DNA from: Candidatus Shapirobacteria bacterium
GTDB lineage: Bacteria; Patescibacteriota; Microgenomatia; UBA12405
DNA: 64,000 bases
NCBI GenBank assembly: GCA_041663285.1
Contig: JBAZSP010000001.1
Span: 7,454 to 71,453, forward strand
Reading direction: 5' to 3'
Positions 4,451-21,434 of this stretch are shown in pieces; position 1 is the stretch's first letter; each line of letters begins with the position of its first letter. Under the pieces are notes generated by a model. That model did no database searches. It had not been told where the DNA came from and saw only the letters and a list, made by a program, of their open reading frames with translations. Position numbers and translations under genes: made by a program.

Positions 4451-5470
4451 ATGTTCAAACAAGCCCGCCTGAAGTTAACTGCCTGGTACCTGGTAATTAT
4501 CATGTTTATCAGCCTTTCTTTTAGTCTGGTTATTTTCCGGTTTCTTTGCCTCGAAGTTGATCGTTTTGCCAACATGCAACGTTTCCGGTTTGAGCGTCGC
4601 TTTTTAGAGAACGGTATTTCGCCGCCTTTAATTATTGTTGATTCCCAGCTGGTTGCTGACACCAAAAGCCGGGTAGCTCTGGTTTTGGCCCTAATCAACG
4701 GAGGTATTTTGTTTATTTCCGGGGGCTTAGGCTTTTTATTAGCCGGCAAAACCCTCAAGCCCATCCAGCAAATGCTGGACGACCAGAAGCGATTTGTTTC
4801 CGACGCTTCCCACGAGCTACGCACCCCGTTAACTTCTCTCAAAAGCGCCATAGAAGTCGGCCTCCGCGACAAAAAGCTTACCCTAAAAGACGCCAAAATT
4901 TTACTTAAAGAAAATATTGCCGACGTTGACCGTCTCCAATTACTTACCCAGGGTCTTCTTAAACTTACCAATTCCGCCGCTGTCGATTCTGCAATCAAAT
5001 TCAGCCAAACCTCCGCCGAAGCTATTGTTAACGAAGTCATAAAAAGAACCAAATCTATCGCTACTTCTAAAAATATCACTATCCTTAATCAAGTCAAAGA
5101 CATCCGCATTTCCGCCGATCCCTCCGGTCTGGCCGATGTTTTAGTGATTCTTATCGATAATGCCATTAAGTACAGTCAGGATTCAACCCGCATTACCATT
5201 TCTTCCCGCCAGCACGACGCTTATCTTTATTTGTCTGTCACCGATCAGGGTGTTGGCATTAATAGCTTCGACCTGCCCCGTATTTTTGACCGCTTCTATC
5301 GGGCCGATCAATCACGATCTGCTTCTTCTCCGCCGGGTTATGGACTGGGGCTGTCAATTGCCCAAAAAATTATTACTGCCCATCATGGAGCTATCAGCGT
5401 GGTCAGTAAACCGGGGCAGGGGAGCACCTTTACTGTTAAACTTCCCCTCGTTCAGCCAAAATTAAGTTAA
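4451..5470 (+). CDS. Sensor histidine kinase (2 TM, HisKA + HATPase_c)
   Basis: H-box ASHELRTPLTSL. N/G1/G2 boxes (IDNAIKYS, DQGVGI, GYGLGLSIA). Two N-terminal TM helices. Directly follows the response regulator. Confidence 0.85.
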   Translation: MFKQARLKLTAWYLVIIMFISLSFSLVIFRFLCLEVDRFANMQRFRFERRFLENGISPPLIIVDSQLVADTKSRVALVLALINGGILFISGGLGFLLAGKTLKPIQQMLDDQKRFVSDASHELRTPLTSLKSAIEVGLRDKKLTLKDAKILLKENIADVDRLQLLTQGLLKLTNSAAVDSAIKFSQTSAEAIVNEVIKRTKSIATSKNITILNQVKDIRISADPSGLADVLVILIDNAIKYSQDSTRITISSRQHDAYLYLSVTDQGVGINSFDLPRIFDRFYRADQSRSASSPPGYGLGLSIAQKIITAHHGAISVVSKPGQGSTFTVKLPLVQPKLS

Positions 5471-5487: not shown

Positions 5488-6714
5488 ATGTTTAAAAAAT
5501 TACCGTTACTTTACAAAGTTTTGTTAATTACTCTTCTCCTTGTATCCCTCTACTACGTCTATAATCGCCGCCAAGCCGGCCAGTCCGCTGTTCCCCAATA
5601 TCAGACCGCCAAAGCCGAAAAAGGTACTTTAATTGTTGCCCTCACCTCATCCGGCCAGATTACCACCAGTAACAGCCGGACCGTCACCACCACTGCCTCC
5701 GGCGTAGTTAAAAAGGTATTTGTTAAAGAAGGAGATAAGGTCAAAACCGGCACTCCGATTCTCCAAATCGATCTGGATTTAACCGGCCAGCAAAAGCTGC
5801 AATCTGCTTATTCGTCTTATTTGTCCGCCCAAAACAGCCTTAAGTCTGCTCAGGACCGGCTATATAGTCTCGAAAGCGATTTTGTTGGTGCCAAAAACGT
5901 TTTTGACAACCAATGGGCCAGCCAATCCCCGGACGACCCAACTTACAAACAAAAACATTTTGCTCTTTTAACTGCCCAGGAGTCTCTGGCCAACCAACAA
6001 AAAGTTATCAATCAAGCTCAGGCCGCCCTTCAGTCCTCCCGATTATCCTATCAATTGGCTAGCTCTACTGTTTATGCTCCAATTTCCGGAACTGTTACCG
6101 CAATTTCATTAACTCCCGGCATGATCTTAAATCCCACCAGTGATTCCGGTAATAGTAGTAACATCGAAAACAAAATCGCTTTGGTCAAAACCGGTGCTGC
6201 TCCCACCGTCAGCATTAGCCTCACCGAAATTGATGTTCCCAAGGTCAAGGTTGGCAATAAAGTTACGATTACCTTAGATGCTTTCCCCTCAAAAAGCTTC
6301 ACCGGTAAAGTTATCGCTGTCGATACTACCGGTACTGTTTCTTCCGGAGTTGCCTCTTATCCGACCACCATTCAATTTGACTCCGAAGAGCCGGAAATTT
6401 TGGCCAATATGTCAGCTACTGCCAATATCATTACCAATATCAAAGATTCGGTTTTACTGGTTCCGGCCTCAGCAATTCAAATTCAAAACGGCCAGTCTCA
6501 AATCCGCTATCTTAGTAACGGCCAGCTGGCTTACAAAACCGTCGAGGTCGGCCTTCAATCGTCCACCCAAGCCGAAATTATTTCCGGCATTAGTGAAGGG
6601 GATGAGGTCGTTACTTCGGTAACCACCCCGGCTTCCTCATCCACTTCTTCCCAAAGTTCTTCACCTTTTAGTGGATTTGGCGGCGGTGGCGGCGTACGGA
6701 TTATGAATCGATAA
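5488..6714 (+). CDS. Efflux transporter periplasmic adaptor (HlyD/MacA-like membrane fusion protein)
   Basis: N-terminal TM anchor, long coiled-coil region, C-terminal beta-barrel-like segment with Ser/Gly-rich tail. Immediately precedes the ABC ATPase and FtsX-type permease. Confidence 0.7.
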   Translation: MFKKLPLLYKVLLITLLLVSLYYVYNRRQAGQSAVPQYQTAKAEKGTLIVALTSSGQITTSNSRTVTTTASGVVKKVFVKEGDKVKTGTPILQIDLDLTGQQKLQSAYSSYLSAQNSLKSAQDRLYSLESDFVGAKNVFDNQWASQSPDDPTYKQKHFALLTAQESLANQQKVINQAQAALQSSRLSYQLASSTVYAPISGTVTAISLTPGMILNPTSDSGNSSNIENKIALVKTGAAPTVSISLTEIDVPKVKVGNKVTITLDAFPSKSFTGKVIAVDTTGTVSSGVASYPTTIQFDSEEPEILANMSATANIITNIKDSVLLVPASAIQIQNGQSQIRYLSNGQLAYKTVEVGLQSSTQAEIISGISEGDEVVTSVTTPASSSTSSQSSSPFSGFGGGGGVRIMNR

Positions 6715-11291: not shown

Positions 11292-14200
11292 GCGGATTGA
11301 ACTTTTTTTCTGGTCAGTAGTTTTACTAAGTAAATTACTGACACCATCCCCAGTGCCCCGCTGCTTACAAAAATTATCAGTGCCACCGGTTGAAAATTAG
11401 AGCCGGAATTATTTCCTCCACTTCTGCCGGCATCCATTTCCGTCGAAAACTCTTTAAGCCCAATGTTTGGCATTCCCGACGTATTCATCCCGCCATCAAG
11501 CGACCTAAAAATTTCAAACTGCGGCCTGATCACATCAATATCTTCCATTGGTGGGGATATGGTGGTTTCGTCAACATCATATCTATTGTCCAAAAGGGAA
11601 TTGTTTTTTAAGTTCTCTAATTGGTTTTCATTCACCAACGCAATCAGCGAAGAGTAGGGGAATATTACCTGATTCTTTTCAGCGTAGGCATGGTATGTGT
11701 CAATAATTTCCGGCTCGTTAAAATCAACCGTCCGGTTCCAAATATAAGTCAATGACGACATTAGCTCTGCCCTGGCCGCCATACTTCCCAAAAAATTATC
11801 CTCTTTTGCCCCCCAGTTTCCCATTGTTTCGCCTATCCCGATTGACTCTGGTCGGTATAGATGCCAAAAATCGCCGATAATTAGATCCTGTTCATTTGCC
11901 CCATCAGAACGGTTGATTACGTTGTCAATAATCCTATTGTTAATAGCATCTTCAATGCTATCGACGACCCCACCACCATTTTCCGCCAACCATTTAGTAA
12001 CATTTTGATTATAGGATGGGATATTATCTGGATGCCAGACATATGTTCTGTCTACTGCATACCCGGATCCCTCGGTTTTTGTATTTATTGTTTTGTCGCT
12101 GGCGATTACAATTCCAACGTCAAATCTTTCAAGATTCTTGGATCCACGGACAGACTTTATCATGTCTCCTTTCCCAAAATATATTAAACTGTCTAAAACT
12201 TGATCAATGTTGCCGCTGTCCACAACCGTTTCTTCGCTCAACCTGTCGTTAAATTTGACCAATTTTATCGAATTACCATTTATGGTTAATTCAGGATGCT
12301 TTTTTACAAACTTTTTTATCTGCTGTATTTTTGGATTGTTCTTATTGTCCATGGACACATCATAAAAAAATACGATATTCGGCCAACCCCATGCCTCGGT
12401 TTCTGCCATCAGCAGTTTTGGTTCAGTTTCGGAGTTACATAGAAATTCTTGGTCAATCTTATAATCTGTTCCATATGGTATTAATTCAGCCTTTTTCCCG
12501 CTTTCGTCAGCCAGCGTAATTTTTTTATTCAGGTTACATAATTTTTCTCCCAAACCAGCTACTTCAACGTATTGATCGCTCCATTTTAAGGTACTCTTAC
12601 CATTCTCCGTTGACAGGCTAATTTTTACTTTACTAACATCCAGGTTTGTCAGTTTCGAGTATACGGGCAAGGCATAACCCGCCGCCCGCCCGGAAACTAC
12701 ATAACTAAATTTTACTTTCTGGTGCTTTCCACCGAGAGTGACAACATCGGTTGATGCCGGAACTGGGAATACCCTTAATCGGTATTGTCTCGGCCCCACC
12801 TGTTCCAGAAGCGCCGGGTCACGACTTTTATCAACCTCTCTCTGATAGGTTTTGGTCGCCGCCCCGCTTGGAGCGATTATCCCCTCAAACTCCAAATTTG
12901 GCCCTAACTTTAATTCATTTATGGCCGCTTCGTTAGGTAGTGAAAATTCATAAATCACTTCTTCTGATCTCGATGAATTGCTGGTAAATTCATCGGTAAT
13001 TTCAACTTTGGCAACTACTCCGTCGTGTTCAGTAGTCAGGTTTATTAACCGGTTATCTAAATTAATCCGGCTTGGGATTCTGGCTATCGTCTGTTTCTTT
13101 AGAATATCTTGTGATATCTTAGCGTCATCGGTGCTGCTACTATAGTAATGGCTCCCGAATATGCTGTAATAATTTACTGTTAAGTCGTTAATGCTACTTC
13201 TGCTTTGACGCAAAACAAAAGGGTAGGCTGCCATCTTAAACCAGGATTGAATACGCTCACTCGCCCTCTCGCTTGTCCCTACATTCTTATAAGCTTGGGC
13301 TAAAAAATTATCGTCATTTGTCAGCGGGTAACTTTCCAGCAAATCAAGATATTCATCAATGGATTTTTTAACCAATTCCTGATTTTTACCCAGCTCTCTG
13401 GCGACTATCTCCTTTTCTTCAAATGTGTATGCTCTCCCAAAACTTTCTAACTTCCTTATTACATACCCTTGCCTTGGTTGGTACGAAAGGAATTCCATTA
13501 TCGTAATCGCCGTTACTGTCGTGACAATCAAAAAAGCATCCATTCTTACCCGCCCCCATTTAGCAATCGCCTGATGCACCAATCGATACCAATTTTTAGC
13601 CAAAATCGCCGTTACTATATAAGGTGTTGAAATTATCACTGCTCCAATAAGAGTTGGCACCAATCTAGTCAATAAAATTGCTAGGGTACTGCCTATACTC
13701 ACTTCACCGTAATATCGTCCACTAATAAGTTCCAGTAAATATTTAATCCAGCCCATTCCGATAGCCGGAACAAAAAAAGACCAAAGTAGTGTCATGTACC
13801 CTGTAATAAATAGGAACATCTCATTAATTAGCAATTTTCCGGCTAAAAGCTTCTCGTCCGAACTATTTTCTGTTTCCAGATACAATACAAACGGTAGCGC
13901 CATTACTGCCAAAGCCGGAGGCCACATGGCTGGTATAGTCCTTACCGCCATCTCGGATATTGTTAGGGATATCAGCACCGTCGGTATCTCAAATATAAAA
14001 AACAATTTTCCCAATTCTGTATTTTTTCTTTTCACCGCCCAAAATACCGCCAAAATAGGAGCTAAAAACATCACCCCCAGTGCAAGCTGTCTTACCGTGT
14101 CAATTTCTTTTAGCTCACCCAACAATCCCGTCGCCGAATCGGGTATGTCGCCCAATGTTAATAAAAATAATATTAAAAGTATCCCAAAAAATAGGTTATA

Positions 14201-14545
14201 ACCCCAAAAAATAAATTTCATAATCAATTCTCCGCTAAGCTTCGGTCTAGCAGTATTTTTATTAACCGCTTCACTTACTTCCATATTGTCCAGGAGTATT
14301 TCAACGGCTATTTGTTGGATCCTCTCCTCAAATCCTTTTGGGGTCACGTCCTTTTTGCCGGCCATCAGCCTGATTATCCCGCTGGCGCTATCAATACTGA
14401 CTAGGGCGGTTTTTTCCGACTTGGGGTAATTTCGAAAATAATCAACCAATATTTGGGCCGAGATCGTTTTTGCCAGCCTTGGCCACCCGGTATCGCTTTT
14501 TGTCGCCAACTCTATCAGCTTAACCAGTTCTTCTCTTTTATTCAT
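11288..14545 (-). CDS. Large (1085 aa) polytopic membrane protein of unknown function, with a ~700-aa extracytoplasmic region and C-terminal TM anchor
   Basis: Long uninterrupted ORF. Soluble N-terminal ~100 aa, about 8-9 predicted TM helices, large hydrophilic domain, C-terminal hydrophobic helix + KK tail. No family motif recognised. Confidence 0.6.
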   Translation of the reverse strand: MNKREELVKLIELATKSDTGWPRLAKTISAQILVDYFRNYPKSEKTALVSIDSASGIIRLMAGKKDVTPKGFEERIQQIAVEILLDNMEVSEAVNKNTARPKLSGELIMKFIFWGYNLFFGILLILFLLTLGDIPDSATGLLGELKEIDTVRQLALGVMFLAPILAVFWAVKRKNTELGKLFFIFEIPTVLISLTISEMAVRTIPAMWPPALAVMALPFVLYLETENSSDEKLLAGKLLINEMFLFITGYMTLLWSFFVPAIGMGWIKYLLELISGRYYGEVSIGSTLAILLTRLVPTLIGAVIISTPYIVTAILAKNWYRLVHQAIAKWGRVRMDAFLIVTTVTAITIMEFLSYQPRQGYVIRKLESFGRAYTFEEKEIVARELGKNQELVKKSIDEYLDLLESYPLTNDDNFLAQAYKNVGTSERASERIQSWFKMAAYPFVLRQSRSSINDLTVNYYSIFGSHYYSSSTDDAKISQDILKKQTIARIPSRINLDNRLINLTTEHDGVVAKVEITDEFTSNSSRSEEVIYEFSLPNEAAINELKLGPNLEFEGIIAPSGAATKTYQREVDKSRDPALLEQVGPRQYRLRVFPVPASTDVVTLGGKHQKVKFSYVVSGRAAGYALPVYSKLTNLDVSKVKISLSTENGKSTLKWSDQYVEVAGLGEKLCNLNKKITLADESGKKAELIPYGTDYKIDQEFLCNSETEPKLLMAETEAWGWPNIVFFYDVSMDNKNNPKIQQIKKFVKKHPELTINGNSIKLVKFNDRLSEETVVDSGNIDQVLDSLIYFGKGDMIKSVRGSKNLERFDVGIVIASDKTINTKTEGSGYAVDRTYVWHPDNIPSYNQNVTKWLAENGGGVVDSIEDAINNRIIDNVINRSDGANEQDLIIGDFWHLYRPESIGIGETMGNWGAKEDNFLGSMAARAELMSSLTYIWNRTVDFNEPEIIDTYHAYAEKNQVIFPYSSLIALVNENQLENLKNNSLLDNRYDVDETTISPPMEDIDVIRPQFEIFRSLDGGMNTSGMPNIGLKEFSTEMDAGRSGGNNSGSNFQPVALIIFVSSGALGMVSVIYLVKLLTRKKVQSA

Positions 14546-14662: not shown

Positions 14663-15541
14663 ATGATTTGTCCCAAATGCGGCAAGGATCTCTTGGATAA
14701 AGCGAAATTTTGTAAATATTGCGGCCACTCTCTGATGGCTGGAACTCCACCTGTGCCGCCTCAAGGTCCTTCGCCCCAACAGCCATTAGCCTCAATCTCT
14801 TCAGAGATTACCAATACTTCCGGCCAGGGCGAAACAGCCATTGTCCCTCCGGAATTAAGCGGTTGGAATTGGGCTGCTCTGCTGTGGACTTGGATATGGG
14901 CCATCAGTCACCGGGTCTGGATCGGCCTGATTTGTATTATTCCAATTCCAATTGTCAGTCTGGTTATGCAAGTAATTCTTGGAATAAACGGCAATAAATG
15001 GGCTTGGCAAAACAAAAAATGGCAGAGTGTCGACGATTTTAAAAAATCCCAGCGTAAATGGGTAAAAGCTTATTTTATTCTGCTCCTCCTGCTTCTTGCC
15101 TTTAGTCTAGGTATAACCTTTTTGCTTGTCGCTATTAACCCCGGGGGCAAACTAAACGAATCCAAAGATGCTAAAACAATAAACGACATCACTACCATTA
15201 AGGCGGTTGTCAACCAGAGTTATATTTCTCAAACTGCCTATCCCTGGGAGCAATCCGGTTCCGGCGGCGAAACTTATTTTACCGCTGATTTGGCCAAGGA
15301 AAGCTGGCTAAACGGCCTGATTGCCACTGGTGATCTTTCCTCCTCTACTGCAGCTGGCTTTTTGGAGGACCCGCCCCTGGCCTTGGTAAGTCGCTTTGGA
15401 CAGCCGGATTTTGTCATCTGTTTTCAGCCACAGTCAAAAACCTATCAGCTCCGGGCATCCGACAGCTGCCAAAACTTTGTCAGCGCCACCAGACCTTATT
15501 TGGATCCCTGTCAGGCCGGCAAAAGTTATTACTGTTACTAA
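14663..15541 (+). CDS. Zinc-ribbon domain membrane protein (hypothetical)
   Basis: N-terminal CPKCG...CKYCG zinc ribbon, Pro-rich linker, 2-3 TM helices. Confidence 0.5.
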   Translation: MICPKCGKDLLDKAKFCKYCGHSLMAGTPPVPPQGPSPQQPLASISSEITNTSGQGETAIVPPELSGWNWAALLWTWIWAISHRVWIGLICIIPIPIVSLVMQVILGINGNKWAWQNKKWQSVDDFKKSQRKWVKAYFILLLLLLAFSLGITFLLVAINPGGKLNESKDAKTINDITTIKAVVNQSYISQTAYPWEQSGSGGETYFTADLAKESWLNGLIATGDLSSSTAAGFLEDPPLALVSRFGQPDFVICFQPQSKTYQLRASDSCQNFVSATRPYLDPCQAGKSYYCY

Positions 15542-17066: not shown

Positions 17067-17942
17067 CTATCTTTGCTTGTCTACCATTTGCGCCAATGAT
17101 TGGTAGCCCAACAATCGGTTGATTTTATTTTTGGCCAATTCACCATTACGCTTCTGAAACTCCATCGCCCGGATTATTCTTCTTAACTTCCTGTCCAAGT
17201 TTACTTTCTTATTAACCACCAGCCCGGTTACGGTTTGTTTTTGATGTTGCCGTTGAATTCGAACTTTTTTCTTTTTTTGGATTTCAAAGCCTTCATCTTT
17301 TATAATCGCCGCGATTTTTTTTAATACCACCCTTTGCTTACGGCCGAAGACCTTAAAAGAAAAAGTCAGGTCGTCAGCATACCGGCTATAACTCCCTTCG
17401 TATTTTAAGGCCAATCTGGTCATTCTCTGGTCCATTTTGTAGTTAACCAAGTTACTCAACGCCGGGCTAGTTGGGGCTCCCTGCGGTAGTCGGGCATTGC
17501 TGGTGCAGATGTTAGTCAAGATTCTAGCCACCGTTTTTCCCCAGCCAATTTTCCTAAAATATTTTTTGATTTTGGTTTGATTTATGCTCGGAAAAAAGTC
17601 TTTCAAGTCCAGATTTATGACTACCGCCTTGCCGGTATGGTTTTTGGCATTGTCGACAATCGATTTCCGGTACCGAAATCCTAAACAGGCAGGATGGGGT
17701 TGCAAGTATCGTAAGAATTTTTGGTGTACCCCTCTCTGCAGTTTTTTCAGTTCACTGTCGGGAGCTTCGATTTGTCTATAACCCCGCTTGTTTCTTTTGG
17801 GTATTTCAAAGGTGGTGTATCCATACCTTTCTGGTTTGCCAAGTTCCCATTCTTTCAGGCTTTCAGTTGCCAAGCCCAACTGCTTGGCCAATTCTTCTGT
17901 CGTTTTACCCCCCTCGAAAAGTTTTGCGATCCAGTTGGTCAT
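17067..17942 (-). CDS. Retron-type reverse transcriptase (Ec86-like clade), 291 aa
   Basis: RT domain motifs in retron-specific form: NAKNHTG, NLDLKDFFPSI (cf. Ec86 NIDLEDFFPSL), LPQGAPTSPALSNL (QGxxxSP, cf. Ec86 LPQGAPSSPKLANL), YSRYADDLTFS (YADD catalytic box), and the retron-specific VTG motif (QTVTGLVVN). The ATG lies 9 nt downstream of the a2 inverted repeat of the adjacent ncRNA. Confidence 0.85.
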   Translation of the reverse strand: MTNWIAKLFEGGKTTEELAKQLGLATESLKEWELGKPERYGYTTFEIPKRNKRGYRQIEAPDSELKKLQRGVHQKFLRYLQPHPACLGFRYRKSIVDNAKNHTGKAVVINLDLKDFFPSINQTKIKKYFRKIGWGKTVARILTNICTSNARLPQGAPTSPALSNLVNYKMDQRMTRLALKYEGSYSRYADDLTFSFKVFGRKQRVVLKKIAAIIKDEGFEIQKKKKVRIQRQHQKQTVTGLVVNKKVNLDRKLRRIIRAMEFQKRNGELAKNKINRLLGYQSLAQMVDKQR

Positions 17943-17950
17943 AAAAATGT

Positions 17951-18089
17951 TTTCAGGCGCTTTGCCTAATCCTTGAAATAAATCGCAGATTTATTTCAAG
18001 GATTAACCTAATTCAAGCACAGCACGTCAGTGCCCGGCCAACGATAACATCGGCCTATACCAGTGAAGGTATCACCAAAGCGCCTGAAA
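17951..18089 (-). ncRNA. Candidate retron msr-msd non-coding RNA, flanked by 14-bp a1/a2 inverted repeats
   Basis: On the minus strand, TTTCAGGCGCTTTG (18089..18076) and its perfect reverse complement CAAAGCGCCTGAAA (17964..17951) flank 111 nt. A G directly 3' of a1 is the candidate branching G. Internal hairpins: ATACC/GGTAT, GGCCGAT..ATCG(TT)GGCC, GCAC-TGAC-GTGC, and a 17-bp perfect stem with 5-nt loop (plus-strand 17967-18005) typical of an msd stem. Located immediately 5' of the RT gene, as in Ec86-type retrons. Confidence 0.6.
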
Positions 18090-18104
18090 TTTAAATAGCT
18101 TCTG

Positions 18105-18110
18105 ATTATA
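18105..18110 (-). promoter_or_regulatory. Candidate -10 box (TATAAT on the minus strand), ~15 nt upstream of the a1 repeat of the retron ncRNA
   Basis: Perfect TATAAT hexamer (reverse complement of plus 18105-18110), positioned to start transcription a few nt before a1. A TTGGCA lies upstream with a short (13 nt) spacer. Overlaps the last codons of the upstream ORF. Confidence 0.25.
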
Positions 18111-18116
18111 CAACTC

Positions 18117-18740
18117 TTACAATTGCCAAGGGGCGGTCGGTTTCGGTGTCGTCTTTATAAACGGCTTGATTCCGCCTGTCGGCAACGCCATTCCGGTCGG
18201 CATGGCCGGGATATTTGATTTTATTATTTCCTTTATCTCTTCCTTAGTAATGTAACCGTCGGCACAATACGCTTGGTCTTCCAACACCTTAGTAAAGGTT
18301 TCACAATTCAACCCCATTCCGTATTTGTTTCCTTCTCCTTGGCTGAATTGCGTTCCCATGCCGATTGGTGTTGGGTCAGCCTCGTCGCCGCTGCACATAA
18401 AATCAAAAAACTTTTTAGCAGTTTCGCATGGCATCCCCTTGCTTATCCCGTTAATCTTCCCTCCACTCGGCATAGTCCAGCCCGTTTCCTGAGTTTGACC
18501 ATCCCACTTCCAGCCCTGTTCGTTTACCGTATCAGTCGGAAATTTTTTTCCGGCTCCTCCATTTCTAGGCGTTTCCGGCATCGTGTTAGTCGAAAACCTG
18601 CTCAGAATACTTTGCCAGCTCAAACCCAGTACTTCCGCATCCAGCCTGTCTGACCAGAATTGGGCTCCCTGAAAAAGAGCTACGGCAAAAAGTGATAACG
18701 CCCCCAAAACTACATAAAAATGGTTACTGTTTTCTTTCAT
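18117..18740 (-). CDS. Hypothetical secreted or membrane-anchored Cys-containing protein (207 aa), co-oriented immediately upstream of the retron ncRNA
   Basis: N-terminal signal-anchor (HFYVVLGALSLFAVALF), Gly/Trp-rich middle, 4 Cys (CETAKKFFDFMC...NCETF...YCADGY). No recognisable family. Its stop is 27 nt from a1. Confidence 0.5.
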   Translation of the reverse strand: MKENSNHFYVVLGALSLFAVALFQGAQFWSDRLDAEVLGLSWQSILSRFSTNTMPETPRNGGAGKKFPTDTVNEQGWKWDGQTQETGWTMPSGGKINGISKGMPCETAKKFFDFMCSGDEADPTPIGMGTQFSQGEGNKYGMGLNCETFTKVLEDQAYCADGYITKEEIKEIIKSNIPAMPTGMALPTGGIKPFIKTTPKPTAPWQL

Positions 18741-18811
18741 ATTACTAAAACTATGGATTATAAGTTACCAAAAGTCAACAACCACACCTGCACCTTCTCC
18801 AACCACAAAAT

Positions 18812-18833
18812 ACCCCCGACTTTCATCGGGGGT
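18812..18833 (-). terminator. Hairpin (7-bp CCCCCGA/TCGGGGG stem) downstream of the RRM gene
   Basis: Read on the minus strand: ACCCCCGATGAAAGTCGGGGGT followed by AUUUUGUGG. Separates the RRM gene from the 207-aa ORF and retron unit. Confidence 0.4.
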
Positions 18834-18866
18834 ATCCGGTTTAACAAAGAAAACAAAAAAACTTAC

Positions 18867-19211
18867 TTAGTTTCTCCAGTTTCCATTATTTCCGCCGCGG
18901 TTTCCGCCGCCAAAGCCTTGGCGTGGTCCACTCCGGGAGTAGTTATCTCTGGGTGGTCTATCTTCCATTGGTCGGGCTTCGTTGACTTTGATTGTTCTGC
19001 CGTCCAATTCTTTTTCATTCCACATTTCAATCGCTGCTTGAGCTTGTTCTTCTGTTTCCATCTCTACAAATCCAAAACCTTTGGATCTGCCGGAGAATTT
19101 ATCCATTATAACAACTGCCGAAACTACTGTTCCGGCTTGGGCAAATGCTGCCGCTAGGGATTGATCGGTGGTTGAGTAAGACAGGCCGCCGACATAAAGT
19201 TTTTTAGCCAT
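18867..19211 (-). CDS. RRM-domain glycine-rich RNA-binding protein
   Basis: RNP-2 LYVGGL and RNP-1 KGFGFVEM motifs. C-terminal RGG/Gly-Asn-rich tail. Confidence 0.85.
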   Translation of the reverse strand: MAKKLYVGGLSYSTTDQSLAAAFAQAGTVVSAVVIMDKFSGRSKGFGFVEMETEEQAQAAIEMWNEKELDGRTIKVNEARPMEDRPPRDNYSRSGPRQGFGGGNRGGNNGNWRN

Positions 19212-19521: not shown

Positions 19522-20298
19522 ATGGCTGGCAACATTACTACCAAGCGGCTGGAAGCCTGGATGTATCGGGCTCCGAATGAGCATTTCGCCCTGATCGTCA
19601 GTATTTTTCTTCTGATTATTTTTGGTTTAATTTTTTCCAGCATTAATTTTATCGTCTTTCTTTTCCTTTTAATTTTGGGTTTGATTTACATCCAATTAAC
19701 CCAAGCTCAATATATCGGCAACGCCGTAAAGGTCACCCCCAGCCAATTTGCCGAGCTCTACGATGTCTTTAACTGTCATACCGAGAGGCTCAACATAAAC
19801 TCTGCCAATCTTTACATCAAGCAGGACCCTTACCTTAATGCTTTTACTGTCGGTTTGGGAACTTGCAGTGTAGTTTTGACATCCAGCCTGGTCGAACAGT
19901 TAAGCCTATCCGAGCTTGATTTCGTTATAGGTCATGAGCTTGGTCACTTTCAGTCCGGCCACACTGTAATTTCTTCTCTGATTAATCCGCTGGGAGGTAC
20001 TAACCCCCTTGGTTTTCTGATTTTTGGCATTTGGAGCCGGGTGGCCGAATATACTTCCGATCGTGCCGGTTTAATCCTCTGCAACAATATCGACTCCGCC
20101 GTTTCGTCCATGATCAAGCTTTCGGTTGGCGGCCGGCTATTTGGCAGGTTTAACGCCGCCGACTACGTCGACCAAATCAAAAGTTCCAAAGACGCTTCGG
20201 TCAAGTTTAGTGAAACCCTTCTTTCTCATCCGCTAACAACCAATCGGATCAGGAGGCTATTACAATTTTGGCGGGAAAGCTTTACAATTAATTCATAA
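19522..20298 (+). CDS. M48-family zinc metallopeptidase (HtpX-like) membrane protein
   Basis: TM helices followed by HELGHFQSGH (HExxH) and downstream Glu-containing segment characteristic of peptidase M48. Confidence 0.75.
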   Translation: MAGNITTKRLEAWMYRAPNEHFALIVSIFLLIIFGLIFSSINFIVFLFLLILGLIYIQLTQAQYIGNAVKVTPSQFAELYDVFNCHTERLNINSANLYIKQDPYLNAFTVGLGTCSVVLTSSLVEQLSLSELDFVIGHELGHFQSGHTVISSLINPLGGTNPLGFLIFGIWSRVAEYTSDRAGLILCNNIDSAVSSMIKLSVGGRLFGRFNAADYVDQIKSSKDASVKFSETLLSHPLTTNRIRRLLQFWRESFTINS

Positions 20299-20301
20299 GT
20301 T

Positions 20302-20937
20302 ATGAAGCCCTGCCCCCAGTGTACAGTTCTAAATCCTGAAGACAGTATCTATTGTCAGGAGTGTGGCCACAAACTGGTTAATTTTGGCGCCAAACTTACC
20401 CGCTCCGGTAAACGTTCATCAAGTCTGTCCAAGGAGCTGGAAGCCGGCCTTGGTCCTGTCTTTGTCCCACCCCAAAGATCACATTCGTTGGCTTTTATGT
20501 TTTTTGGAGCCGTTGTCTTGGCCATAACTTTTTTGGCCATCCTCGGCTCCGTTGTCGGTTCCGACGACGTTGACCGCCTGTCGTCATTGTCAAATACCAA
20601 AGTCTCGCCATCAGTTAAGTCAGCGGTCCCTCTCACCAATTTATCTCTAACCGGCATTGACTCCGAATGGCGGGGTACTTACCCCCAGTCGGTTTTTTAC
20701 GTCAATGGCACTATAACCAACAACTCTGCCACTTCTGTCCGCAACACCATGCTACGGGTTGATTTTTATTGGGATAAAGATCTTACCGATATTTTTGATA
20801 CCCGTTATTTGAAGATCACTACCGCCATTTCCTCCAACAATCGCCATTCTTTTTCCCACCCGATCTCCGGCTTCTTTCCCAAAGACAATAAAAACTTTTG
20901 GTATCTGGTTACCGTTATTAGTTCCGAAAAAGATTAA
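20302..20937 (+). CDS. Zinc-ribbon domain membrane protein (hypothetical)
   Basis: CPQC...CQECG zinc ribbon at N-terminus, one TM, extracytoplasmic domain. Confidence 0.5.
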   Translation: MKPCPQCTVLNPEDSIYCQECGHKLVNFGAKLTRSGKRSSSLSKELEAGLGPVFVPPQRSHSLAFMFFGAVVLAITFLAILGSVVGSDDVDRLSSLSNTKVSPSVKSAVPLTNLSLTGIDSEWRGTYPQSVFYVNGTITNNSATSVRNTMLRVDFYWDKDLTDIFDTRYLKITTAISSNNRHSFSHPISGFFPKDNKNFWYLVTVISSEKD

Positions 20938-21434
20938 TGGGTTGCCATAAGTGTCATAAGGAAATTAGTCCTGCCGCCAAATTCTGCAATTATTGCGGCG
21001 AACCGGTACTAGCTTTGGCCACTCTTCCGGCTCCTTCAGGGCTTCGTTTCCTCAACCTCTTTCTTGACAATATTTTCCAATATTCGATTATTTTCGTATT
21101 AGTAATTGCCTTTTCTTTAGTAAAAGTTCTTCTGTCCAAAGAACCTTCTTACGACCCGTCCTTTGAGCAAGTCCTGGCATCAATCCTTCGCCCAGCCATT
21201 CTTGTCCTCCATTTTGTTTATTATATTTCCTCTGAAGCCTTGTGGCAGCGCAGCCCGGCAAAGTTTATCACCGGCACCAAGGTAGTAAGTAGCACCGGCG
21301 GCAAACCTCTTATTTCTCAAATTATTATTCGCTCACTTTGCCGGCTCATCCCCTTTGAACACTTTTCCTTTTTTGGTAAGAATCCGGTTGGCCTCCACGA
21401 CAAGATATCCAAAACTATCGTTGTCAAAGCTTAG
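20937..21434 (+). CDS. Zinc-ribbon + polytopic membrane protein (RDD-like?)
   Basis: CHKC...CNYCG zinc ribbon followed by 3 hydrophobic helices. RDD-family resemblance is weak. Confidence 0.45.
   Translation: MGCHKCHKEISPAAKFCNYCGEPVLALATLPAPSGLRFLNLFLDNIFQYSIIFVLVIAFSLVKVLLSKEPSYDPSFEQVLASILRPAILVLHFVYYISSEALWQRSPAKFITGTKVVSSTGGKPLISQIIIRSLCRLIPFEHFSFFGKNPVGLHDKISKTIVVKA

Follow-up and report, generated by a model that had tools for sequence, protein, structure and literature searches.

The stretch analysed here comprises 64,000 nucleotides of contig JBAZSP010000001.1 from a Candidatus Shapirobacteria bacterium (hereafter the window, to whose first letter all positions refer), and carries on its reverse strand an intact gene for a retron reverse transcriptase (RT), preceded by a structured non-coding RNA (ncRNA). 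The RT open reading frame (ORF; 17067..17942, minus strand) starts with ATG and encodes 291 amino acids. Its translation contains NLDLKDFFPSI, LPQGAPTSPALSNL, YSRYADDLTFS and QTVTGLVVN, all of which had been quoted as retron-diagnostic in a first-pass annotation made from the sequence alone, and additionally NAKNH, the set comprising the NAxxH motif of region X, QGxxxSP, YADD, and the VTG of region Y. Pfam recognised RVT_1 alone in the 291 residues (1.3e-23), and neither Pfam nor PADLOC detected an effector domain at the C terminus, the protein stopping at the RT thumb as it does in solo relatives.

To classify the RT, its sequence was compared with profile hidden Markov models (HMMs), a check suggested by the first-pass annotation, and the models for retron RTs scored best by far. 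Those in PADLOC gave values from 1e-85 to 1e-55, headed by RT_XIII (1.4e-85), RT-Protease_XI (6.5e-81) and RT_II-A (5.6e-76). The solved protein chains nearest to the window RT were all retron RTs, with Ec86 first (E=7.1e-37 over residues 23-267) and Ec67 after it. Other RT classes were considered and rejected: a group II intron RT (54.6 bits with group_II_RT_mat, whose cut-off is 300), a defence-associated RT (DRT; 56.9 bits with Drt2, cut-off 390), and the RT of a diversity-generating retroelement (DGR), since the protein has QGxxxSP and no template/variable repeat pair was evident around it. The repeats within 17900-18160 were hairpin arms only, and an Rfam scan of the locus returned no intron RNA domains.

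A protein identical to the window RT is deposited at NCBI, on a 155-kb contig, as 'retron St85 family RNA-directed DNA polymerase [Candidatus Shapirobacteria bacterium]', in agreement with the earlier surmise that the genome might be of the Candidate Phyla Radiation (CPR) type. The 'St85 family' part of this label reflects a broad HMM, NCBIfam retron_St85_RT, which the window RT passed with 245.6 bits at a cut-off of 235, a margin of just 10 bits. The closest homologues were 52-55% identical and 274-308 residues long, and in an alignment of the window RT with 21 homologues, 60 columns were invariant and the catalytic and retron-specific residues were all kept. The first-pass annotation had thought so short an RT unusual, a view that did not hold up, because relatives are similarly short (274-320 residues) and 291 residues is an ordinary size in this clade; the PADLOC RT_X and RT_VI models have 272 and 279 positions. 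The base composition of the RT gene (GC content 0.43, and 0.50 at third codon positions) was the same as that of neighbouring genes, which argues that the cassette is not a recent import.

The ncRNA lies directly upstream of the RT gene on the same strand, and measures 139 nt with a1 and a2 both included in full (17951..18089, minus strand). The two arms of its closing stem, a1 (UUUCAGGCGCUUUG, 18076..18089) and a2 (CAAAGCGCCUGAAA, 17951..17964), are complementary at 14 of 14 positions and are separated by 111 nt, exactly as the first-pass annotation had reported. That annotation had also placed a2 nine nt upstream of the ATG; a2 is indeed just upstream, and the gap is 8 nt. In seven close relatives (L083, L084, L092, L097, L100, L104 and L110), the corresponding distance was 6-18 nt. 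Directly 3' of a1 is an unpaired G (18075), the base singled out earlier as a candidate branch point, followed by three msr hairpins of 5 bp (18057..18072), 8 bp (18036..18055; GGCCGAUG-UUAU-CGUUGGCC) and 5 bp (18021..18034). The msd hairpin, which is the predicted template of the multicopy single-stranded DNA (msDNA), occupies 17967..18005; it was first described as 17 bp with a 5-nt loop, and while the position stood, the hairpin has one more closing C-G pair, giving a perfect 18-bp stem (arms 17967-17984 and 17988-18005) and a UGC triloop. A second unpaired G (17965), the candidate first templated base, is located immediately 5' of a2. This order of elements follows the published plan of retron ncRNAs, in which msr hairpins and an msd hairpin are bracketed by terminal inverted repeats, with a G left unpaired after a1 (Mestre et al., 2020; PMC7736814).

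Both the repeat and the fold were well beyond chance expectation. Perfect 14-bp inverted repeats with a spacing of 20-300 nt occurred twice in the window, compared with a mean of 0.09 in a first-order Markov simulation. The minus strand of 17945-18095 folded at -70.1 kcal/mol (z = -9.4), a value equalled by none of 200 shuffles.

To evaluate whether the RNA is conserved, we examined 160 loci encoding related RTs, 80 from metagenomes and 80 from genomes, and ten more obtained by exact protein look-up. In a simple inverted-repeat search, 65 loci had repeats of the a1/a2 kind preceding the RT, with YYUG as the last bases of a1 and a G next to it. In 11 GC-rich relatives the msr sequence was almost identical to that of the window, and RNAalifold, given these together with the window (12 sequences), predicted 36 pairs, and compensatory changes were present in 20. 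A covariance model, R1, was then built from the 11 relatives with the window sequence excluded. R1 found a single match in the 64-kb window, at 17949-18091 on the minus strand (50.4 bits, E=5.6e-8), so that the covariance check proposed in the first-pass annotation, like the RNA-fold check, came out in favour of an msr-msd element exactly at this place. The model also matched upstream of the RT, and on its strand, at 61 of the 80 metagenome loci and 19 of the 80 genome loci, and at all eight of the extra loci to which it was applied (L081, L162, L163, L165, L167, L168, L169 and L170). All six other members of the window's subclade are among these matches.

The alignment of 61 distinct family sequences supports the modelled pairs. 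Standard pairs made up 94.9% of the cells, compared with 25-52% when the partners were slid by 1-3 columns; double-sided changes were present in 29 of 35 pairs, and none of 500 shuffles reached the observed values. Compensatory changes affected 9 of the 11 modelled pairs of the a1/a2 helix and all 5 pairs of msr hairpin 1 (helix 3), where they were double-sided. Hairpin 2 (helix 4), the most conserved element of the family, was 99.8% paired with compensatory changes in 4 pairs, hairpin 3 (helix 5) was 89.6% paired, and the msd stem sequences (helices 6-7) covaried as well. The window ncRNA is thus a member of a conserved RNA family with covarying pairs, which precedes homologous RTs. Rfam gave no match on the ncRNA to retron families or to any others, either in the window locus (at E≤10) or in seven related loci (at E≤0.1), and in this comparison, made with Rfam, the R1 family is absent.

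A four- or five-hairpin architecture was common to 71 of 75 family members, and consists of the a1/a2 stem, a first hairpin of ∼5 bp, the conserved 8-bp hairpin 2, a third hairpin of 3-10 bp, and a terminal hairpin. Among these 75 members the terminal hairpin varied from 3 to 18 bp and was free in its stem sequence, while its loop was usually a triloop of the YRC type, with UGC, CGC, UAC or UUC in 42; the 18-bp msd stem of the window is at the long end of this range, as are those of low-GC relatives. Two short segments did not vary at all. UGG, made up of the last two bases of a1 and G18075, and GC, made up of G17965 and the first base of a2, were each invariant in 62 of 62 aligned members, which singles out G18075 as the putative branch point and G17965 as the base that would be templated first, roles assigned on the model of the canonical retron mechanism. 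We also observed that the 18-nt msd apex AAUAAAUCUGCGAUUUAU (17975-17992) is identical in L162, though the two RTs are just 54% identical, and that a CUGCG-type apex recurs across the family; the shared apex hints at sequence-specific recognition of the msDNA loop.

The first-pass annotation had noted a TATAAT about 15 nt upstream of a1, and this hexamer was located at 18105..18110 (minus strand), 15 nt from a1, as a candidate -10 box. A promoter consensus scan did not list it, because no good -35 is present. Hexamers of the -10 kind were found 5-16 nt upstream of the ncRNA in all six of the low-GC or close relatives inspected (TATAAT in four, with TAGAAT and TAAAAT in the other two). Their positions would fit a dedicated promoter, with transcription starting at or just before a1.

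To place the RT among retron lineages, a neighbour-joining tree of 159 RTs was computed by a simple distance method, without bootstrap and without reference sequences of clade 8. In this tree the clade spanned by R1-positive RTs contained 110 of the 159. The window RT grouped with P0004, P0002, P0003, P0005, P0008 and P0012 in a subclade of seven low-GC solo RTs, whose sister group comprised L081 and P0035 (both RT-trypsin fusions), L090 and L096 (both RT-CHAT fusions), and L004. P0035 matched PADLOC RT-Protease_XI from end to end, is followed by a Trypco1 gene and has an R1 ncRNA upstream, and in L081 the upstream ncRNA stood out clearly on inspection, with its hairpin 2 conserved and a TATAAT box present. 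Since the same ncRNA precedes both RT fusions and solo RTs, one msr-msd family serves both. Close relatives with a fused protease of the Trypsin_2 or CHAT/caspase-like kind were seen at L170:4001-5802, L090:1437-2990, L096:848-2476 and L081:672-1880, and in L170 the Trypsin_2 fusion is followed by a 110-aa Trypco1 gene. More distantly, 27 loci at 35-40% RT identity were confirmed as type XIII by SWIM_XIII (1e-236) and WGR_XIII (3e-289), and all 27 fell outside the R1-positive clade of this unbootstrapped tree. The R1-bearing lineage is hosted by a CPR bacterium, Planctomycetota, Verrucomicrobiota, Acidobacteriota and other environmental metagenome-assembled genomes (MAGs). Provisionally, this suggests a lineage that is type XI/XIII-like rather than Ec86-like and distinct from canonical type XIII, with the window copy best read as a protease-less, type XI-like retron. 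The tree behind this assignment has neither bootstrap values nor reference RTs, and the HMMs for XIII and XI score the window RT almost equally. The earlier description of the RT as Ec86-like is therefore right in that Ec86 is the nearest solved RT, and wrong in that the lineage sits with type XI-like RT-protease fusions.

The nearest relatives of the window RT in the tree, the RT-trypsin and RT-CHAT fusions, have the architecture of type XI, in which the RT carries a C-terminal trypsin-like protease, and they share the ncRNA family of the window. In contrast to type XI, the window RT has no protease and covers just positions 5-265 of the 510 in the RT-Protease_XI model, which it matches with 271 bits as against 286 for RT_XIII. 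The best PADLOC model is thus that of type XIII (Mx162, Mx65, Sa163, Ne144; RT clade 10), and the homologue search recovered 35-40% identical RTs in Myxococcota and other phyla. However, type XIII is characterised by a SWIM zinc-finger protein, usually together with a WGR/HEAT-ARM protein, and neither the window nor any R1-positive locus has SWIM_XIII or WGR_XIII; R1 gave no match in the SWIM/WGR loci, and the window RT covers positions 114-411 of the 469-position RT_XIII model, whose N-terminal extension is missing. The msd hairpin of the window measures 18 bp, whereas the msd of the Mx162 type, at 162 nt, is much longer. Ec86 (Eco1; II-A3) shares its motif set with the window RT, and its ncRNA is built on a like plan with a1/a2, msr hairpins and an msd hairpin, but the RT_II-A models score the window RT below those of types XIII and XI, and the window ncRNA belongs to an unrelated family that has no Rfam match. 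Ec86 works with an N-glycosidase effector resembling nucleoside deoxyribosyltransferases (NDT-like), and here too the window differs from type II-A (Ec86/St85-like) retrons, whose nucleoside deoxyribosyltransferase-like effector comes with a DNA-binding domain, in that no such effector gene occurs within about 8 kb of its RT.

Retrons without a protease or any dedicated partner have precedents. Mestre et al. (2020; PMC7736814) defined 13 retron types by their effectors, reported type XI as lacking a recognisable ncRNA, and described stand-alone (msr-msd)-RT cassettes in the Retron-Eco5 (Ec107) branch of clade 2 and in a branch of clade 11; ncRNAs for clade 8/type XI were later stated to be validated (Khan et al., 2024; PMC10849725). 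The window resembles the stand-alone cassettes in consisting of an RT and an ncRNA with no specifically associated protein, but differs from Ec107 in RT lineage (208 bits with RT_Ec107-like, against 286 for XIII and 271 for XI), in ncRNA family and in host phylum. A recent preprint found the protease missing in 207 of 232 type XI-like RTs from SPIRE, and described two protease-less lineages from Bacteroidota and Bacillota that are accompanied by WYL or DnaB_C genes and by candidate ncRNAs flanked by a1/a2 (Toro, 2026). Patescibacteria go unmentioned there, and whereas a WYL or DnaB_C gene defines those lineages, the window has neither, and its lineage, in CPR and environmental MAGs, has no recurrent accessory gene.

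An effector, the third component of modern retron systems, was sought within the 64 kb of genome available. The first-pass annotation had called the retron complete; RT and ncRNA are present, but an effector was not found, either as an extra domain of the RT or among its neighbours, which are an orphan ORF (ORFan), a lactate permease and a protein with an RRM domain. Downstream of the RT is the convergent lactate permease gene, whose stop codon is 16 nt away; the nearest homologue of this permease is just 52% identical, and no close genome was available for a comparison of synteny. The ORFan (18117..18740, minus strand), adjacent upstream, encodes 207 residues with an N-terminal transmembrane or signal helix and four Cys, present in two 'CET...' segments, and was not shown to be part of the retron. 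It has no match in Pfam, PADLOC or NCBIfam, no homologue but itself among 5.8 billion proteins, and no tblastn match in about 170 related loci, and the mean predicted local distance difference test (pLDDT) score of its AlphaFold2 model was 45.9. Beyond it is the RRM-protein gene (18867-19211). Other genes within ±8 kb encode a cyclase, an oxidoreductase, a VIT-domain protein, zinc-ribbon membrane proteins, an M48 peptidase, an S-adenosylmethionine (SAM) methyltransferase and a nucleotidyltransferase. A defence island was considered and rejected, as PADLOC reported only a generic similarity to SAM methyltransferases over this range.

Across 55 + 7 related loci there was no conserved neighbour. 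The genes directly 3' of 55 related RTs had no family in common and were mostly housekeeping-like, including those for pyruvate kinase, an MFS transporter, a sulfatase, a thiolase, an SDR protein, UppS and a histidine kinase. The six other members of the subclade occurred in six differing contexts, among them sortase/shikimate dehydrogenase, HemN/PilB-type ATPase, QueH, NfeD/Band_7 and response regulators. When ∼3,200 flanking ORFs were clustered and the 55 downstream genes were compared with Pfam and PADLOC, only scattered ATPases and helicases emerged. The solo state therefore appears, from these gene contexts, to be the norm in this lineage rather than an accident.

Two recurring arrangements were seen among the relatives. 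At L127:5948-7917 and L135:5970-7855, the RT is followed by an AAA_21/AAA_15 ATPase (HEC-01A/AriA/PtuA-like in PADLOC) and by a gene for a protein of 261-275 residues with no family assigned, which may be an acquired ATPase-type effector pair. In L083, L088, L089, L100 and L104, an ABC-F-type ATPase of ∼560 residues (two ABC_tran domains and ABC_tran_Xtn) comes directly after a solo RT; in L104 (4981-6666) and L100 its gene overlaps the RT stop codon, and the remaining flanking genes differ. This neighbour could be a functional partner or mere conserved synteny.

We consider it very probable that the locus is a functional-looking stand-alone retron cassette of Candidatus Shapirobacteria, consisting of a putative promoter of its own, an msr-msd ncRNA of ∼139 nt and the 291-aa RT, and protease-less and type XI-like in kind. 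By analogy with the canonical retron mechanism, a1 (18089-18076) of the transcript would pair with a2 (17964-17951), the RT would bind the three conserved msr hairpins, and the 2'-OH of the unpaired G18075 would prime cDNA synthesis. The msd would be copied from G17965 through the 18-bp hairpin, yielding a branched msDNA with a predicted length of roughly 45-55 nt. The biological role would most likely be phage sensing or defence, with a partner that is encoded elsewhere or is unrecognisable, and an effector-independent activity of the RT-msDNA complex is a possible alternative.

Several observations weigh against this interpretation. Nearly all characterised retrons require an effector, and the failure to find one at the locus weakens the case for defence, although an effector may act in trans, the inspection having covered 64 kb of the genome. 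The scores of the RT with the PADLOC XIII, XI, II-A and III-A models are close (286 to 250 bits), and without bootstrap values its placement relative to clades 8 and 10 of Mestre et al. is provisional. The promoter has no recognisable -35 box. Hairpin 2 of the window departs slightly from the consensus, with a loop of 4 nt instead of 3 and one G-U pair, and the R1 score of 50 bits is well below the 99-129 bits of the GC-rich training clade, while equal to the 45-58 bits of the low-GC relatives.

A broader reading, which we hold to be unlikely but not negligible, is that a widespread retron lineage, found in CPR, Planctomycetota, Verrucomicrobiota, Acidobacteriota and others, functions without any dedicated effector. 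If this were true, RT and msDNA would be selected on their own, even in a streamlined symbiont genome, through an effector-independent activity of the complex or through coupling to a conserved host factor rather than to a toxin; the ABC-F translation ATPase found directly after the RT in several relatives would be one candidate for such a factor.

Much less probable is a tripartite retron with the 207-aa ORFan as effector, which, anchored in the membrane in the manner of type IV (2TM) effectors, would kill the cell when the RT-msDNA complex is disturbed. The ORFan is on the same strand, directly upstream and 27 nt from a1, with no terminator detected between the two; its N terminus forms a hydrophobic helix, and effectors vary widely among retrons. 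However, the ncRNA has its own -10 box past the ORFan stop codon, and since the ORFan ends 6 nt before that candidate box, it is probably a separate transcription unit. Its lack of homologues anywhere, including the related retron loci, means that there is no co-occurrence signal, and the other six members of the subclade have no equivalent. With four Cys, a Gly/Pro-rich composition and a single N-terminal helix, the protein would more resemble an exported protein than a toxin facing the cytoplasm, and its structure prediction (pLDDT 46) was uninformative.

Marginally less probable again is that the cassette is a decaying, non-functional remnant of a type XI-like retron that has lost its protease effector. 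No effector is present, sister RTs carry trypsin or CHAT domains, and the window ncRNA scores below those of GC-rich relatives. Against decay, the RT ORF is full length and retains every catalytic and retron-specific residue, with the 60 invariant columns shared across 21 homologues, and the a1/a2 and msd stems are perfect (14/14 and 18/18). Base composition is fully ameliorated, and reduced CPR genomes would be expected to purge dead genes fast. Moreover, a solo RT with a covarying ncRNA is common to the whole subclade and to dozens of more distant relatives, which argues for long-term purifying selection without an effector in cis.

It is hardly credible that the structured RNA acts in cis on the translation of the RT, as a regulatory 5' leader or a terminator-like element, or that the RT is of another class (DGR, group II intron or Abi/UG/DRT). 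In favour of this reading, a2 ends 8 nt from the ATG, so that the closing stem could occlude ribosome access, a terminator scan flags a small hairpin at 17969-17953, and the Rfam retron families give no match, but the architecture is exactly that of a retron (inverted repeats, invariant unpaired G, three msr hairpins and one variable msd hairpin; PMC7736814), members of this RNA family also occur with RT-protease fusions assigned to retron XI by PADLOC, the RT carries QGxxxSP, NAxxH and VTG and is far below the group II and Drt2 cut-offs, and neither intron RNA domains nor an evident template/variable repeat pair accompanies it.

Patescibacteria are organisms with very small genomes, in which few defence systems have been recognised. 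A full-text literature search found no paper describing retrons in this phylum, and the stand-alone cassette described here would be the first worked-out CPR retron. The RT was already labelled as a retron RT in GenBank, and stand-alone and protease-less retrons are documented, so the claim is incremental; the novelty lies in the host phylum, in the model of the ncRNA family, and in the sign that solo cassettes are the rule in this lineage. The covariance model and the invariant positions can be reused for a family of ncRNAs that has no Rfam entry and serves a large, mostly environmental RT clade, RT-trypsin and RT-CHAT fusions included. A solo state that appears to be usual sharpens the question of what effector-less retrons do, and with an RT of 291 residues, a short and simple msd hairpin and a clear a1/a2 pair, the cassette is a reasonable candidate for retron-based tools for DNA production.

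Some minor features were noted in passing. In the related locus L092, the strand opposite to the retron ncRNA carries a tRNA gene (4702-4773) at a distance of 64 nt on the upstream side, which recalls tRNA-linked retron insertion; such an insertion was rejected for the window cassette, as the window contains no tRNA genes. After the RRM-protein gene, a strong GC-rich hairpin followed by a T-run (18804-18869, minus strand) is probably an intrinsic terminator, and gave spurious weak Rfam matches to 'Phe_leader' and 'BSnc120'. Flanking the retron, at 14663-15541, 20302-20937, 20937-21434 and 19522-20298, are three paralogous-looking membrane proteins with N-terminal zinc ribbons (one of them RDD) and the M48 peptidase, none of which matched a defence model. 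Lastly, the window has only two other long perfect inverted repeats with short spacing, one of 14 bp at 5873-5886 / 6169-6182 (282 nt apart) and one of 13 bp at 14157-14169 / 14254-14266 (84 nt apart), the latter within the 1085-aa ORF of the VIT-domain protein.

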